A stretch of DNA of 32,000 bases, taken from assembly GCF_000193795.1 (NCBI RefSeq), contig NZ_AEPI01000123.1; one strand, written 5' to 3'. Origin of the DNA: Neisseria lactamica NS19 (GTDB lineage Bacteria > Pseudomonadota > Gammaproteobacteria > Burkholderiales > Neisseriaceae). This document shows positions 24,402-32,000 of this stretch, piece by piece. The notes beneath the pieces are model-generated. The model made no database searches. It worked only from the letters and a program-made list of their open reading frames with translations, and was not told the origin of the DNA. Position 1 is the stretch's first letter, and every line of letters starts with the position of its first letter. Position numbers and translations under genes: made by a program.

Positions 24402-24761
24402 TCAGGCTACTTCACCAACCGTAATACCGACTTCTTTTTTCTCCTGTGTTTTGGCGATAGTCAAAATAATCTCACGACTTTTATTTGTTGATTGTCGATA
24501 GTTTTGAAGCAGTTCTAATTCATCTTTGCTGAGTTCGTTTGAATTTTCAGACGGCCTATTTCCTGTGAAAAGGAAATTTACATCTGCACCTAATGCACAA
24601 AAAGAGAAAATAATTTCACAGTTTGGTAGAAATTGACCACGCTCATATTTTCCCCACATCTCACGTGTAATGCCGCATTTCTCAGCAAGTTGAGACTGAG
24701 TCAAACCTAACTTTTTTCTTTCTACTTTCAATCGATTAGCAAAAAGAGAAATATTTTCCAC
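24402..24761 (-). CDS. XRE/Cro-CI-type HTH regulator, AT-rich (119 aa from GTG 24761; ATG 24797 is the alternative start)
   Basis: VENISLFANRLKVERKKLGLTQSQLAEKCGITREMWGKYERGQFLP... aligns residue-for-residue with the N-terminus of the 23887-24240 product; AAGGA lies 9 nt before the GTG. Confidence 0.7.
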   Translation of the reverse strand: MENISLFANRLKVERKKLGLTQSQLAEKCGITREMWGKYERGQFLPNCEIIFSFCALGADVNFLFTGNRPSENSNELSKDELELLQNYRQSTNKSREIILTIAKTQEKKEVGITVGEVA

Positions 24762-27072: not shown

Positions 27073-27987
27073 ATGAAACAAATTAATCAAGCATTGCAAC
27101 AAAAACTGGCTGAATTTAAAGAAAAATCGGGTATGAGCCAAACCCAGCTGGCACGCGGTATCGATACTTCGCCGGCATCCGTCAGTATGTACCTGAACGG
27201 TACTTATGCGGCAAAAGGCGGTAATTATGAAACCATCGAGCCGAAAATCGAAGCGTTTTTGGAGATGCAGGAAAGCAAAGCGCGACGCGAAGAGCCGGTG
27301 TTTGGTTTTGTATCGACTAAGACGACACGCCGCATTGCGGAAGTGATGCGCGATGCGCACGAAGGCGGCGAAATAGTGGTGATCTACGGTCAGGCGGGAT
27401 TGGGCAAGACTCAGGCGGTCAAAAACTACTGCGAGAAAAACCCTGCGGCCATCTTGATTGAGGCTAATCCGAGCTTTACGGCACTTGTGCTGATGCGCAA
27501 GTTGGCGACTGCGGCGAAGGTATCGGCGATGGGCAGCCTGAATGATTTGTTTGAGTCTGTATCTGACCGCCTGCGCGATTCGGGCCGTCTGATTGTGGTC
27601 GATGAAGCGGAAAACCTGCCTTTACGCGCCCTTGAGATTATCCGCCGATTGCACGACAACACGGGCTGCGGCTTGGTGTTGAGCGGTATGCCGCGACTGG
27701 TGGCGAACCTGCGCGGTAAGCACGGCGAGCTGGTACAGCTTCACAGTCGTGTGGCGGGTGCGCTGCCTTTGGGCGATACGATGCCCGACGCGGAGTTGGA
27801 ACAGATTGCGCGGGCAACACTACCCGAAGCCGATGATGAAACGATTGCGGAGCTGGTCAAACAAAGCAACGGCAATACGCGCCGGATGAGCAAATTGATG
27901 CGCGGCGCGGTACGCACGGCAAACAAGAACGGTATCAAGGTGCAGGCCGGTATCGTTAAGAAATACAGCTCCCTGATTATCCGATAA
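27073..27987 (+). CDS. Mu-type transposition ATPase (MuB-like, AAA+ with N-terminal HTH)
   Basis: N-terminal HTH (GMSQTQLARGIDTSPASVSMYLNG), Walker A GQAGLGKT, Walker B LIVVDEAENL. Confidence 0.9.
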   Translation: MKQINQALQQKLAEFKEKSGMSQTQLARGIDTSPASVSMYLNGTYAAKGGNYETIEPKIEAFLEMQESKARREEPVFGFVSTKTTRRIAEVMRDAHEGGEIVVIYGQAGLGKTQAVKNYCEKNPAAILIEANPSFTALVLMRKLATAAKVSAMGSLNDLFESVSDRLRDSGRLIVVDEAENLPLRALEIIRRLHDNTGCGLVLSGMPRLVANLRGKHGELVQLHSRVAGALPLGDTMPDAELEQIARATLPEADDETIAELVKQSNGNTRRMSKLMRGAVRTANKNGIKVQAGIVKKYSSLIIR

Positions 27988-27999
27988 GAAAGATAGTGT
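27985..27999. other. Proposed recombination junction: + strand TAAGAA-AG-ATAGTGT (minus strand ACACTAT-CT-TTCTTA), Mu-like flank / core / filamentous-prophage end
   Basis: Both halves are exactly matched by loop sequences of the structured leader at 29102-29312 (see findings). TAA 27985-27987 is the MuB-like stop codon. Confidence 0.55.
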
Positions 28000-28156
28000 A
28001 TTTCACGGTCAAATAACTTTACATTTCTTGACCTTGCAAGAATACACACCCCGACTTGTTCGGGATGTTTGTTCCGTTTTGAATGGATTTGATGTTTTAA
28101 TTTATGTTTTATTTTCAATAAATTGAAAATTTACTAGGCTTTTGGCCGCGTTAAAT

Positions 28157-29107
28157 CTATTTATATCTTTCCACTTGGAAATCTTGGCCGTTCTGCAAAA
28201 GCGTAAACGCTATTACCGCCAGTTTCCTCATTATGGCGATTAATATCAGCTTTATATGTTTTCCCTTGTTTTTCAGACGGCCTACAAATTCAGGAAAGGC
28301 ATTGCAACGATATGCAACAAGGGCAGGCATATAAAGGCTTTTCCTTATTTCCGAACTTCCTATTTTTGATATTCTGCTTTTTCCGTTTACGCTTGTTCCT
28401 GATTGAAATTTTCTAGGGTCTAGGCCTAGATAAGCCGTGAACTGTTTTGCATTTTTAAATTCATGTTTTTTATAGGTTGATAACAATACGGCTGTCGCTT
28501 GCTCGCCTATGCCTGTTATTGTTTTCAGCCTTTTGCGAAGGTTGTTATAGCTTGGATTGTCTTTGTAGAACTGGAGTAATTGCTTTTTGACTATATGTAT
28601 TTGTGCTGTCAGGTTTGAAATAGTTGTTTGAATATGGGATTTGATATAGTCGGGTGCTTCGTGTTGTTTGGCTTTTTCTGTTGCGCGTTGCTGTTTCAGA
28701 TAGTCTAAATATCGGGCGATTTCCTGTAATTGCTTCTGTTCTTTTGCTGGCGGTTTCCATGCTTTTAATTTGTGCTTTCTGTCTTGGCAATATTGAGCTA
28801 TCAACTTTGCGTCTTGTTTATCTGTTTTTGATCGTTGTAGTTCTGCTATCGCATATCCTTTTATCTTTCGTGGATTCTCTACGGTAATTGTGTATCGTAA
28901 ATAAAGATATTCGGCTAATGCTTCGTAATATGTGCCTGTTGCTTCGCACACGCAATGAAGCTTATCGGTTACTTTATGACTTTGTAGCCAATTTATTAAT
29001 TGTTCAAATCCTCCTTTGTTGTTCTGAAACTTCTTTTGATGATTTTGACCGTCTGCAATCAAACAGCAATCTATTGTTAGCTTTGAAACGTCAATTCCTA
29101 AGTACAT
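28157..29107 (-). CDS. IS110-family (Piv/irg-like) DEDD recombinase/transposase
   Basis: 316 aa; LGIDVSK, CEATGTYY and KTDKQDAKLIAQYC motifs (RuvC-like DEDD domain); C-terminal ITGIGEQTA...SG.S...RISK.G....R..LYM.A Tnp_20 domain; AT-rich. Confidence 0.9.
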   Translation of the reverse strand: MYLGIDVSKLTIDCCLIADGQNHQKKFQNNKGGFEQLINWLQSHKVTDKLHCVCEATGTYYEALAEYLYLRYTITVENPRKIKGYAIAELQRSKTDKQDAKLIAQYCQDRKHKLKAWKPPAKEQKQLQEIARYLDYLKQQRATEKAKQHEAPDYIKSHIQTTISNLTAQIHIVKKQLLQFYKDNPSYNNLRKRLKTITGIGEQATAVLLSTYKKHEFKNAKQFTAYLGLDPRKFQSGTSVNGKSRISKIGSSEIRKSLYMPALVAYRCNAFPEFVGRLKNKGKHIKLILIAIMRKLAVIAFTLLQNGQDFQVERYK

Positions 29108-29312
29108 GGTTTAACCTTATTAATTCGGGCTTTTTGCCCTAGATAGTGTTCAAACTTAAGATGTACGAAAGCCCACGCTTCTATCTTTCTTACAAGCTGT
29201 ACGCTTTGGCCGTACTTTCGAAGTCGTGGGCTTTACTTGGTGTTTCGTCAAACGCCAAGCCCTCAATGGGCTGATTTACTCATTCAGGGCTTGAAGCTTA
29301 CCGTCTTTGCCG
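29102..29312 (-). ncRNA. Candidate bridge (guide) RNA in the 5' leader of the IS110-type recombinase
   Basis: Two abutting stem/internal-loop/hairpin modules (29168-29234 and 29102-29166). Their loops contain exact 12-nt and 9-nt matches to the element/flank junction at 27985-27999. The 5' end is inferred from a promoter-like TTTACC-17-TAGAAT. Confidence 0.55.
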
Positions 29313-29318
29313 TTTCTG

Positions 29319-29347
29319 ATTCTATTATGGTTACTGGTTTTGGTAAA
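29319..29347 (-). promoter_or_regulatory. Sigma-70-like promoter for the leader RNA/recombinase (minus strand TTTACC-N17-TAGAAT)
   Basis: -35 at 29347-29342 and -10 at 29324-29319, read directly from the minus strand. Confidence 0.45.
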
Positions 29348-29385
29348 TATTTCTGTTGCGACCCGAATGTCTGATTTTTTTAGGC

Positions 29386-29580
29386 GTATCTCAGTCTGGA
29401 ATCACTCCGTTAGTGGGTTTCCGGTATTGAAAAACAGTTCATAAAAAAGGAAAAGGGGGTGTTCGTAAAGATTGGGCAAAAAGCGCGCCCAATCTTTACA
29501 AAGCTTCCCCCTTTTCCTTTTTTCTGCCCTATTTTCCTGCACCTACAACCCCCGAACGAAGCGATTCCAGACTGAGACAC
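29386..29580. repeat. 195-bp compound palindrome with three nested arm pairs
   Basis: Outer GTATCTCAGTCTGGAATC (29386-29403) / GATTCCAGACTGAGACAC (29563-29580), 17/18. Middle AAAAAAGGAAAAGGGGG (29443-29459) / CCCCCTTTTCCTTTTTT (29507-29523), 17/17. Inner GTAAAGATTGGGC (29465-29477) / GCCCAATCTTTAC (29487-29499), 13/13. Confidence 0.85.
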
Positions 29581-29808
29581 TTTAAAAAAAAACAGCCATT
29601 CTAACAGTTAACCCCCTTCACTCAGCTCAAGCCATCCTGAGGGGTAAGGGCTGAAACCGAAAGATTTTTATTTTGAATGAAAGGAACTTTATGACATAGA
29701 TTCAGGCGCAAAAATCAAAGAGCGGTGGGGATAAGCAAAAATCCCCAAGCCTGAGAACAAGGGGATTTTTTGCATTCCTGCCAAGTGTGAAACTTACAGG
29801 AAAATCAA

Positions 29809-29901
29809 ATGCAGATAAATTTGAAATTTGGCAAACTGCTTTTGACTATCACGATTGATATACGGTTTATTCTAGCCGTTATCATACTGATAAGTCAATA
29901 A
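29809..29901 (+). CDS. Speculative 30-aa hydrophobic peptide MQINLKFGKLLLTITIDIRFILAVIILISQ
   Basis: AGGAAA SD 6 nt upstream of the ATG, hairpin terminator 13 nt downstream, antisense to the phage gene direction; no homology recognised. Confidence 0.2.
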   Translation: MQINLKFGKLLLTITIDIRFILAVIILISQ

Positions 29902-29914
29902 CCCACGACAAGAA

Positions 29915-29936
29915 CCGCCCGATTAAGGGCGGTTTT
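29915..29936. terminator. Hairpin CCGCCC-gattaa-GGGCGG-TTTT between Zot (minus) and the small plus-strand ORF
   Basis: Read directly. Confidence 0.5.
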
Positions 29937-30011
29937 CTAATTGAAAACGCCTCCGCCCGAATCTTCAAATATCTTGCCCTTTTCTTCCCAGTTGTCATAC
30001 ATCAAGTTTTG

Positions 30012-31097
30012 TTAGGGCTTTCCGCCCATTACGAGAACTTGGGGCTTGTCCGCTTTCGCGGACTGTGCCGCCTGTTCCGTCCTTTGCTGTTCGTCCTTGT
30101 AGGGATTAAAGGGTAAGCCGTTTCTTGCGTAATCTTTGCACATTGCCTTTGTAATTTCCTTCAAGGGCGTTCCCTGTTGGGAATAACATGTGCAATCTGA
30201 TTTTCCGCCTTCTATGCATCCTACGATTTGCTCAAAGGTTTTTACTTGTCGGACTGTGTTATAAATAGGCTTGCTTTCGGGCTTTTCGGATAAAGTCGGC
30301 ACAAAGTCTTCGGGTTTCAGATTGTCGGAATGCTCAAAAGGCGCTATCTCTGATGATGCCGTCTGCTCCGTCATCGTCTGCACAACGCTTTCTTTTTGTG
30401 CTTCCTGCTCAATCTGGCCGCCTGTGTTTTTGCTGTAAACTTGAAACATACCGTAACTTTTCCAGCCTATAAACCCTATAATCGCAATCAACGCCCAAAC
30501 CGCCCAAGGTACTTTTTTCTTAAACTTTTGGTGTTGGCTTGCGGATTTATAGTATTTGAAGGCTTCTTTAGGCGGTTTCCAACTTGCGACTTCCACGCCG
30601 CTTACACCTGCCGGATTGTCCAACGAGGTTACGCATTTATACCAAGAATACTGTTTCATGCCGATTGCCTTGCGTTCAAGGTGTACATGCTTTGAAACAA
30701 GGTTGCGGACAAATATATCAAGTTGGCTCGGGTGCTGCGTCATCAAAATAACGGTATGCCCGTGATGGCGTAATTCTGTCAGTTCTTGAATATAGGGCGG
30801 AACGGGACGGCCTGCCGCGCGTACCGGGTAAGTGTAGTGCGCTTCGTCAACAATCAGCACCGCGCCTTCCGGTATGACATCACGAAGCGGGGCGGACATG
30901 ATTTGTTCTTCCGTCAGTTCGTGGGCATTGAACTTGCGTTTGTCCAATCCGTCGATATGGCAGAAATAAAGCGGCCTGTCTACTTCCGTGCCGTCTTCCA
31001 ATTTCATTTTGAACAATCCGTCTTCGTTGTTCAAAATCATAGAGACGACACGAGAGGTTTTGCCCGTCCCCATATTTCCCGTAAACAAATAAATCAT
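30012..31097 (-). CDS. Zot-family / filamentous phage assembly ATPase (pI-like)
   Basis: MIYLFTGNMGTGKTS Walker A, VLIVDEAH Walker B, central TM segment WAVWALIAIIGFIGW; typical Zot architecture. Confidence 0.88.
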   Translation of the reverse strand: MIYLFTGNMGTGKTSRVVSMILNNEDGLFKMKLEDGTEVDRPLYFCHIDGLDKRKFNAHELTEEQIMSAPLRDVIPEGAVLIVDEAHYTYPVRAAGRPVPPYIQELTELRHHGHTVILMTQHPSQLDIFVRNLVSKHVHLERKAIGMKQYSWYKCVTSLDNPAGVSGVEVASWKPPKEAFKYYKSASQHQKFKKKVPWAVWALIAIIGFIGWKSYGMFQVYSKNTGGQIEQEAQKESVVQTMTEQTASSEIAPFEHSDNLKPEDFVPTLSEKPESKPIYNTVRQVKTFEQIVGCIEGGKSDCTCYSQQGTPLKEITKAMCKDYARNGLPFNPYKDEQQRTEQAAQSAKADKPQVLVMGGKP

Positions 31098-31106
31098 GTT
31101 TCTGCC

Positions 31107-31397
31107 TTATCTCGGAAAGACAAACGTCAGTTTTTTCAATGCGTGCATACCAATAAAGAATGAAAACGCGCCGAACAGATAGCCCAAACCCTGCCCGAAT
31201 CCCGAAATTAAAAGAAGGTTCAATATGTCGGAAGGCATGGAATTGATCGCGTTGGCCGTGTAATCCTTGAACTTGTTCAGTGCGATGAGATACCCGGCAT
31301 AGGTTACAAATGTCATACCCGTTGCAATGATGATTCTGACAATCAGCATTTTCAGGAGTATGCCTAAAAGTGGAATGAGACCGGCGAGCAATGGCAT
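31107..31397 (-). CDS. Small membrane protein, pVI-like minor coat protein (DUF2523-like)
   Basis: 96 aa with 3 hydrophobic segments. Sits between the pIII-like and pI-like genes as in inoviruses; its start abuts the upstream stop (TAAATG). Confidence 0.55.
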   Translation of the reverse strand: MPLLAGLIPLLGILLKMLIVRIIIATGMTFVTYAGYLIALNKFKDYTANAINSMPSDILNLLLISGFGQGLGYLFGAFSFFIGMHALKKLTFVFPR

Positions 31398-32000
31398 TTA
31401 TTTCCCCCTCAACGAACCGAAAACGACAAAAGCCGACATAATGATAAAGGCGAGCAGTACGGCAAATCGGATTTTTTCCGCAAACACGCATAACGGCTCA
31501 TAGCTTGCCTGATATTGCCTACCGAAAACATGAAAGGTTTTCGGCTGCGGACATACGCCGTTAGACGGTAAAAAGTTATCTGAAGACCATGTTTTATCGT
31601 CTGTAACCTGCGGTATTCTTATATCGTCAAACATGCCGTCTGAAGGTTCGCCCATCTCCTGACAGGCTAGGATTGTCGGGAAATACTTGCATAAAAAACC
31701 ACCGTCTTCGCCTTCTTTCCTTTCTTTGCCGTCCCTGCCGTTTGTGCGTCCCGGAACGGCGGGGGAATCGGGTCTTGTGCCGGGCTGTCCGTCCGTATCG
31801 GGATTTGCATTGGGATTCAAATCGGGGGCGGGTTCGGGATTGGGACGCGTGCCGGGGTGCTCATTGGGGTTCGGGTTGTTTGCAGGGTTTTCGGCGGGCG
31901 ATACTTCGGGCAGCGGCTGTGCGTTCGGTGCTTCCGCGCTTCCGGGGGTTAAATCGGGACGCGGGATTACTTGGACATCCACCGTGGTGTTGCCTTGCGC
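31398..32000 (-). CDS. TspB / pIII-like adsorption protein, C-terminal part (5' end outside window)
   Basis: The frame is open to the window edge. Pro/Asn/Gly-rich linker (PNPNEHPGTRPNPEPAPDLNPNANPDTDGQPGTRP), Cys-containing domain and C-terminal membrane anchor LLAFIIMSAFVVFGSL. Confidence 0.7.
   Translation of the reverse strand, partial: AQGNTTVDVQVIPRPDLTPGSAEAPNAQPLPEVSPAENPANNPNPNEHPGTRPNPEPAPDLNPNANPDTDGQPGTRPDSPAVPGRTNGRDGKERKEGEDGGFLCKYFPTILACQEMGEPSDGMFDDIRIPQVTDDKTWSSDNFLPSNGVCPQPKTFHVFGRQYQASYEPLCVFAEKIRFAVLLAFIIMSAFVVFGSLRGK

Follow-up and report, generated by a model that had tools for sequence, protein, structure and literature searches.

How does a filamentous phage of Neisseria choose the site at which it enters a chromosome? 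The question is raised by a 32,000-nt stretch of the Neisseria lactamica NS19 genome (contig NZ_AEPI01000123.1; hereafter the window), in which a filamentous prophage of the Nf type abuts a Mu-like prophage and carries, close to that junction, the gene for an IS110-family recombinase. A first-pass annotation had proposed that the leader of this gene is a bridge RNA whose loops match the integration junction, so that phage integration would be RNA-programmed. Comparative tests of junctions, guides and stems across homologous loci favor this proposal, while the position it gave to one guide and two of its stems proved wrong, and they make it highly probable that the leader (29312-29102, minus strand) encodes an IS110-type bridge RNA guiding the integration of Nf-type filamentous phages.

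The recombinase combines an N-terminal DEDD (RuvC-like) domain with a C-terminal Tnp domain bearing the catalytic serine, and is identical to WP_019273447.1, named IS110 family transposase of Neisseria lactamica. Its alignment with the transposase of IS621 (PDB 8WT6; E = 1.4e-58) covers the full length of the protein, and with a 2-residue PDB-chain offset applied, D6, E55, D96, D99 and S236 stand opposite the IS621 catalytic residues D11, E60, D102, D105 and S241. All five are invariant in a 20-sequence recombinase alignment (A1). The same protein occurs on 23 further contigs, and the leader was identical in all ten places retrieved.

Two words tie this leader to the junction. The 12-mer UAAGAAAGAUAG on the minus strand (29192-29181) is identical to plus-strand positions 27985-27996, and the 9-mer ACACUAUCU (minus strand 29149-29141) is identical to minus-strand positions 27999-27991, which confirms the 12/12 and 9/9 matches on opposite strands noted before. 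Each word is present at only two places in the window, the leader and the junction. Shuffled sequence, searched at the same mismatch setting as each word, gave an expectation of 0.06 matches for the 12-mer (at most one mismatch) and 0.02 for the 9-mer (exact), and none of 100 shuffles gave two matches for either, in agreement with the initial judgement that chance was unlikely. The 12/12 match spans the junction because it is made up of a right-target guide followed by a 4-nt handshake guide.

When folded, the 226-nt leader reaches −68.1 kcal/mol (z = −4.15 vs dinucleotide shuffles) and recovers the two modules as first described. We evaluated each stem in an alignment of 27 distinct homologous leaders, as the percentage of cells that form a standard pair. 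The 10-bp basal stem of the first module, AAAGCCCACG/CGUGGGCUUU, forms in 95% of cells and shows compensatory changes at 8 of its 10 pairs, and the GGGC/GCCC apical hairpin of the second (29139-29136 with 29130-29127) forms in 92% with three compensatory pairs; both had been drawn correctly. The GUACG-N7-CGUAC hairpin proposed for the first module was rejected, being paired in 59% of cells and overlapping the left-target guide; the covarying stem is AAGC/GCUU, between the two target guides, where all four inner pairs change on both sides (AU/GC/UA and GC/CG types). The basal stem proposed for the second module survived in part: the inner ACAU/AUGU pairs, which hold the start codon, are kept, and the UUAA/UUAA portion, paired in 45% of cells, was discarded. 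The predicted RNA upstream of the gene is a structured one with two loops, as in the IS110 group, and has compensatory changes in three helices. Ahead of the two modules stands a 5′ stem-loop whose sequence is common to the N. flavescens relatives L011 and L012; the IS621 bridge RNA likewise begins with a stem-loop. The predicted layout is a 5′ stem-loop, then a target module (stem, left-target guide, hairpin, right-target guide with handshake bases, stem), then a donor module (start-codon stem, left-donor guide, hairpin, right-donor guide with handshake bases, stem). As corrected, it coincides with the published layout of IS621.

The ends of the element recur from copy to copy. Every copy has its right end, ...GAAATACACTAT-CT, 160 nt past the recombinase stop codon; the left junctions have the form ...TTCAGACGGC-CT-TATATATT, and at all loci CT-TATATATT makes up the left end of the phage. 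The identical leader occurs at no fewer than four sites, and at each of them the left boundary is ACGGC-CT and the right one CT-TTC(T/C)T. The right flanks of these copies are TTCTTATCGG (after Mu B), TTCTTCGTTC, TTCTTCATTT and TTCCTGTCTT (inside a split type III restriction gene); they differ, yet their first five bases fit the guide AAGAA-AG. On the left, the complete copies L001 and L002 read TTTTTCAGACGGC-CT-TATATATTGCG and GGATACGGC-CT-TATATATTGCG. From these junctions we deduced a target ACGGC-CT-TTCTT and a donor attP ACACTAT-CT-TATATATT. The first-pass annotation had named identical loops at different sites as a finding that would count against it; the sites in question share the guide-specified ACGGC-CT-TTCTT. 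It had likewise asked whether the far junction matches the remaining loop halves, and there the left flank ...ACGGC-CT is read by ACGGCC, in the 5′ half of the target loop, and the phage left end CT-TAT by AUAAG, in the 3′ half of the donor loop.

Both unrecombined partners could be recovered. A scan for the Mu B 3′ end found the empty site, CCGATAAGAAAG|GCCGTCTGAA or CCGATAAGAAAG|GCCGTCTGAAATGAGAC, in 25 of 27 Mu-like prophage contigs; in the orientation of the recombinase it reads TTCAGACGGC-CT-TTCTTATCGG, contains ACGGCC and is 8/8 complementary to UAAGAAAG. A near-search of INPHARED returned only ~76%-identical inoviruses, one of which, the complete circular saliva inovirus OR148970.1 (recombinase 78% identical), gave the circular attP, ...GAAATACACTAT-CT-TATATATTGCCC, between recombinase and Rep; the same joint is present in L130 and L157. 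The CT core that had been claimed at the junction is found at all four places: at the left junction (...GGC-CT-TAT), the right junction (...TAT-CT-TTC), attP (TAT-CT-TAT) and the empty site (GGC-CT-TTC). The window's own left junction lies beyond base 32000, so its left half is deduced from the empty site and the other identical-leader copies, and we predict it to read ...GTGTCTCATTTCAGACGGC-CT-TATATATTGCGTCC. Contigs encoding the exact Mu B protein were all short and all bore the insertion, none of the viral contigs scanned had the left junction predicted on the Mu side, and a Mu flank was present in none of 121 left junctions from a metagenome scan.

If the leader guides integration, altered loops should sit at correspondingly altered sites, and this is what we observed across leaders drawn from GTDB genomes, IMG/VR and metagenomes. 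Among recombinases that are 95–97% identical the leaders are near-identical except for a hypervariable segment 5′ of AG-AUAG, whose variants include UAAGA, UAGCA, UCAUC, UAACA, CUGAA, UAACG and UAAAA. Guide AGCAA is found with the flank CT-TTGCT at six different sites, CATCA with CT-TGATG, TGAAA with CT-TTTCA, AACAA with CT-TTGTT, AAAGA with CT-TCTTT, TAAAG with CT-CTTTA, GAAAT with CT-ATTTC and CGCGC with CT-GCGCG. The 5-nt match is perfect in 27 of 34 distinct guide/site pairs (13 guide classes), and 159 of 170 positions match, against a permuted mean of 106 and a permuted maximum of 130 over 50,000 permutations; with one site per class the count is 58 of 65 (permuted mean 30, the observed count never being reached by permutation). 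In an independent metagenome set, 7 of 9 pairs matched perfectly and one further class appeared, AATCA with the flank TGATT. IS621 likewise pairs with 5 nt of right target beyond the core (positions 10–14; PMC11208158). Could leader and junction, both AT-rich, resemble each other by accident? A/T-rich guides and flanks do raise the background, as the shuffled mean of 106/170 illustrates, but the two words are unique in the window, 0 of 50,000 permutations reached the observed match and the independent metagenome set agrees, and we regard chance as extremely improbable. If base pairing is what counts, a leader with UAGCAAAG in place of UAAGAAAG should prefer CT-TTGCT.

The left half of the target has a different character. 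The left-target guide had been expected in ACUUCGAAA, and is instead ACGGCC, inside the segment that had been drawn as the GUACG-N7-CGUAC hairpin. Nearly every left flank is TTCAGACGGC-CT, with the full word in ~114 of the 121 metagenomic junctions, a set that was selected on CAGACGGC. Together with the core, the left half gives ACGGCCT, the last seven bases of TTCAGACGGCCT, which is the reverse complement of the 12-nt AG-DUS AGGCCGTCTGAA, a dialect of the Neisseriaceae DNA uptake sequence (DUS). The AG dinucleotide defines this dialect (PMC3630211), so the CT core complements the dialect-defining AG. Since the left half with the core is part of a DUS, the five right-guide bases would select a subset of DUS copies; in the window the selected copy is the DUS directly after the Mu B-like gene of the Mu-like prophage. 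The target loop follows the IS110 arrangement, its 5′ strand in the sense of the left target and its 3′ strand antisense to core and right target, because ACGGCC matches TTCAGACGGC-C, UAAGAAAG is antisense to CT-TTCTTA, and both covary with their flanks.

This left-hand covariation follows the uptake-sequence dialect. In Neisseria sp. CP9 (L013; 21 AG-mucDUS and 0 AG-DUS) the flank TTCAGACGAC-CT goes with the guide ACGACC. In L167, a locus that holds only words of presumed eikDUS type, flank TTCAGGTAGC-CT goes with GUAGCC, and in L169, with one word of presumed simDUS type, flank TTCAGGCAGCC-CT goes with GCAGCC. The two dialects carry A at +4 (eikDUS) and T at +3 (simDUS) (PMC3630211). L152 and L154, with recombinases ~55% identical, sit in ATTCCCGC-CT...CT-GCGCGGGAAT, which is the dRS3 repeat, and have loops CCCGCC and CGCGCAG. 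They are the only relatives at dRS3, and their contigs carry AT-DUS alone, a dialect whose AT dinucleotide cannot furnish a CT core. A more distant clade with 320-aa recombinases has guides GAUACC, AAAACC or AAACC and flanks ATAC-CT or AAAAC-CT. In all, matching sites were seen for at least 14 classes of right guide and about six of left guide. The window host is itself an AT-DUS species, with 24 of the 28 DUS copies in the window AT-DUS and only two AG-DUS, and the Mu prophage had supplied one further AG-DUS at the point of insertion. The two AG-DUS copies lie at 28272-28283 and 24546-24557, both on the plus strand; one falls within the recombinase coding sequence (peptide GRLKNK), so that the phage itself carries an uptake sequence. 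A separate contig (L257, 10762-10804) has two prophage left ends facing each other across an inverted DUS pair (AATATATAAGGCCGTCTGAATATTTCAGACGGCCTTATATATT), so that both arms of a terminator-like DUS pair are occupied in opposite orientations.

The guide/flank series also bears on protein-only recombination, in which attP and a site resembling a DUS or dRS3 would be recognized by the recombinase itself, the leader would be a structured 5′ untranslated region, acting for example in translational control by sequestration of the AUG, and the likeness of leader and junction would be due to recombinase-binding repeats. The start codon is indeed held in the basal stem of the donor module, and there is hardly any variation in the left flank (a DUS) or at either phage end, as expected of protein-recognized sites. 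Yet the variable leader segment complements host DNA that lies beyond the element, the two vary together among 95–97%-identical recombinases, and another DUS dialect, or dRS3, comes with another left guide. Binding-site repeats, moreover, would match element DNA rather than host flanks, and would do so without a sense/antisense split. We therefore consider the protein-only explanation improbable, and continue with a guiding RNA.

On the donor side, the left-donor guide ACACUAUCU is the sense of the phage right end plus core, and the variant guides AUACUAU and AAGCUAU are matched by the variant element ends ATACTAT and AAGCTAT. The right-donor guide AUAAG is complementary, in antisense, to CT-TAT at the left end of the phage, and ATAAGG is invariant across the 27 aligned leaders. 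The donor loop thus shows the sense/antisense arrangement of IS110 bridge RNAs, on its right side by complementarity only. As the first-pass annotation had claimed, the geometry is that of IS110/IS621, with left guides in top-strand sense and right guides antisense (PMC11208160). Handshake guides have been described (PMC11208158), and the leader carries candidates for pairing with non-cognate DNA on both sides: AUAG is antisense to CTAT, the last four bases of the phage right end, and the G 3′ of AUAAG could form a handshake pair with the final C in the left half of the target. The AUAG variants AUUG and ACUG retain only the core-proximal positions.

These elements suggest a route for integration. 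We infer that the leader RNA is transcribed, that the recombinase binds it and that specificity comes from base-pairing and not from protein contacts. The double-stranded circular form of the phage would carry attP ACACTAT-CT-TATATATT between the recombinase 3′ region and Rep. The donor loop would read this attP, with ACACUAUCU on the left side and AUAAG on the right, and the target loop would read chromosomal ACGGC-CT-TTCTT, with ACGGCC on the left and UAAGAAAG on the right. The DEDD/Ser recombinase would then exchange strands at the CT core, with the handshake AUAG and G stabilizing the exchanged strands, and the outcome would be a prophage flanked by CT.

Several observations weigh against this scheme. 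Three insertions, L003, L007 and L009, have a right junction, ACACTAT-CT-TATCGG, that is 4 bp shorter than the window's and matches the guide at 1 of 5 positions; the shortening amounts to one TCTT instead of two. An empty site in L112 has an extra AAAG, and this 4-nt microheterogeneity at the Mu site could reflect slippage, use of a second CT or half-matched recombination. In L138 the guide matches at 3 of 5 positions. L119-L125 have a window-type leader and a left flank AAAAC (TTTTAAAAC-CT) that mismatches ACGGCC. Right-donor pairing covers only ~5–6 nt and does not covary, the donor end being invariant. DUS is a conserved repeat, and left-flank invariance alone could reflect the distribution of ACGGCCT. 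The promoter noted previously, TTTACC-17-TAGAAT, is present at 29347-29319, but it matches the consensus at 9 of 12 positions, a level no more frequent here than in shuffles, and relatives differ in sequence upstream of the shared leader. An Rfam scan of 27500-30100 (E ≤ 1) found no bridge-RNA family, giving only spurious miRNA-like matches on a long hairpin (29376-29589); with no matching Rfam model, assignment to the bridge RNAs rests on structure and covariation. Finally, the bridge RNA lies ~6.8 kb from the left end of the element, unlike in compact IS110 elements.

The last point deserves attention since IS110 elements are ~1.5 kb, with the RNA next to the left terminus and a promoter restored at the circle junction. 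Here the left end is 5.9–7.2 kb upstream of the recombinase gene, next to Rep, in every complete copy, and with an end so remote, regulation by a promoter formed at the circle junction cannot apply. We take this layout as a difference in architecture, not in recombination chemistry. A unit of recombinase and leader that so resembles a compact IS110 element might also be an autonomous insertion sequence inside the prophage, moving alone, with the bridge RNA serving it and not the phage. Modules are exchangeable, as this would lead one to expect: a DUF2523 protein 100% identical to the window's occurs with another recombinase/leader module (320 aa; L320-L329). However, the window has no CT-TATATATT-like end in the stretch from leader to Zot, the end that the right-donor guide reads is 5.9–7.2 kb upstream by Rep, the circular genome joins exactly these two ends, and the leader stands beside Zot in every contig that extends upstream. 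A nested insertion sequence is accordingly quite unlikely, and the phage as a whole is the better candidate for the mobile unit. An exchange of modules may also account for some discrepant loci. The flank of L119-L125 corresponds to the targets of the 320-aa clade, and this points to a swap of the integration module between resident prophages once insertion had taken place; these loci (e.g. L119, 2487-2546) also show a tandem 16-bp duplication of the left end, TATATATTGCGTCC-CT-TATATATTGCGTCC. An identical DUF2523 beside a differing integration module indicates that structural and integration modules recombine freely among Nf phages. L016 and L020, whose leaders are similar to those of L320-L329, have recombinases ~40% identical.

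Bridge RNAs of the IS110 group are already known (PMC11208160, PMC11208158), and the system here shares with IS621 and its relatives the DEDD + Ser recombinase, an RNA directly upstream of the gene with 5′ stem-loop, target loop and donor loop, the senses of the guides, the CT core, handshake bases 3′ of the right guides and ~5 nt of right-target pairing. It differs in that the mobile unit is a ~7.8–7.9-kb filamentous phage with ~6.8 kb of phage genes before the RNA, in a handshake stretch that can be 4 nt, a short right-donor pairing and a start codon within the donor-module stem, and in its target, a DUS where IS621 uses a REP element. The IS1111-group seekRNA/bridge RNA elements belong to the same recombinase superfamily and share RNA-guided target choice, with the RNA downstream of the gene, in the right end (PMC11208160), and not upstream as here and in the IS110 group. 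The Nf1/MDA phages, of the same phage family and gene order, integrate at a short CT-containing repeat, dRS3, via an IS110 (pivNM/irg-type) transposase (Kawai 2005, Meyer 2016, cited in PMC7058167); as cited there, those papers ascribe specificity to the integrase, and PMC7058167 mentions no guide RNA. Here dRS3 halves are found in the L152/L154 loops, whereas the window phage uses AG-DUS plus TTCTT. For ICENmu, an integrative conjugative element of Neisseriaceae, DUS motifs were proposed as integration sites, and changes of dialect were suggested to alter host range (PMC7371117). That element similarly exploits an abundant repeat, often at terminators, as a landing site, but its DUS is in attP and its integrase conventional, whereas here an RNA loop would read the DUS and attP has none. 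In the full-text literature, with most subscription journals outside reach, no paper turned up that connects bridge RNAs with inoviruses, apart from an aptamer review in which the words merely occur together, and none that connects Nf integration with DUS; an earlier description is possible. The presence of a bridge RNA in an inovirus, the way it follows DUS dialects and the natural hypervariability of its right-target guide appear to be undescribed.

A wider generalization seems to us rather more probable than its opposite, with less assurance than for the window itself: that filamentous phages of the Neisseriaceae, among them the Nf1/MDA lineage associated with disease, depend for integration on a bridge RNA evolving as a natural, modular address label, in which the left guide tracks the host's DUS dialect (AG-DUS, AG-mucDUS, eikDUS-like, simDUS-like) or dRS3 and the 5-nt right guide diversifies rapidly, spreading otherwise identical phages over DUS copies. 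If so, a virus naturally reprograms a bridge RNA, a transformation signal doubles as a phage landing pad, and a few RNA bases set the site of phage integration, which would explain the dRS3 specificity of the meningococcal MDA family. Bridge RNAs have so far been described for minimal insertion sequences, and here the same machinery would carry a whole virus. The natural series of guides and sites amounts to ready specificity data for the engineering of bridge recombinases, and the finding ties competence signals, in the form of DUS dialects, to phage host range and polylysogeny.

Table 1. Features of the integration locus and surrounding prophage (window coordinates).
Feature	Position	Strand	Basis or detail
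Host right-target half TTCTTA, overlapping Mu B-like stop codon	27985..27990	-	Empty Mu sites
Prophage right end: left-donor half ACACTAT + CT core (27992-27991)	27991..27999	-	Same end in every copy
IS110-family (DEDD + Ser) recombinase, 316 aa	28157..29107	-	Pfam DEDD_Tnp_IS110 (PF01548) + Transposase_20 (PF02371)
Predicted donor-binding loop module	29102..29166	-	Fold; basal stem includes start codon (AUG 29107-29105)
Putative right-donor guide AUAAG + G	29115..29120	-	AUAAG antisense to CT-TAT of phage left end
Putative left-donor guide ACACUAUCU	29141..29149	-	Sense of phage right end + CT core, 9/9 identical to 27999-27991
Predicted target-binding loop module	29168..29234	-	Basal 10-bp stem AAAGCCCACG/CGUGGGCUUU, 29234-29225 with 29177-29168
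Putative handshake guide AUAG	29181..29184	-	Antisense to CTAT, last four bases of phage right end
Putative right-target guide UAAGAAAG	29185..29192	-	Antisense to target top strand CT-TTCTTA
Target-loop apical hairpin AAGC-GUACA-GCUU	29194..29206	-	AAGC 29206-29203 with GCUU 29197-29194
Putative left-target guide ACGGCC	29208..29213	-	Sense of target top strand ACGGC + C of core
5′ stem-loop before the two guide modules	29250..29299	-	Minimum-free-energy fold
Promoter-like TTTACC-17-TAGAAT upstream of leader	29319..29347	-	Consensus scan, 9/12 matches
Nf-type filamentous prophage, part inside window	27991..32000	-	Pfam; left end beyond window
Zot	30012-31097	-	Pfam; upstream of recombinase, same strand
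DUF2523	31107-31397	-	Pfam; upstream of recombinase, same strand
TspB C-terminus	31398-31982	-	Pfam; upstream of recombinase, same strand

The phage genes visible in the window follow the order that characterizes the Nf-type (Nf1-4 / MDA-like) neisserial inoviruses. The complete copies with an identical recombinase (L001 and L002, ~7.8–7.9 kb from CT-TATATATT to ACACTAT-CT) display the full order Rep_trans, coat B, TspB, DUF2523 (G6P-like), Zot and IS110 transposase, and the leader adjoins Zot in every contig reaching upstream of it. The window phage does not occupy dRS3 (ATTCCCRCCTRCGCGGRAAK), the integration site by which this group is also recognized; like its close relatives, it integrates at ACGGC-CT-N5, in most cases a DUS. 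The interval from Zot to the leader holds a long imperfect inverted repeat (29365-29601; 95-nt arms, 77% complementary, 47 nt apart), which may be a phage packaging or origin hairpin.

On the other side of the recombinase, Pfam identifies a transposase like Mu A and an ATPase like Mu B, and a ClpB encoded in the window is identical to the N. lactamica protein WP_019273438.1. The filamentous prophage here is a phage within a phage, lodged in a Mu-like prophage (window 27073-27999; empty sites in L092-L118) directly after the Mu B-like stop codon, with the ATG of the following Mu gene 8 nt further on, an insertion that should uncouple the downstream Mu genes. Host genes can be interrupted as well: the identical-leader copy in L001 (1828-3102 and 10982-12433) disrupts a type III restriction gene, splitting it into ResIII helicase and RE_endonuc parts.

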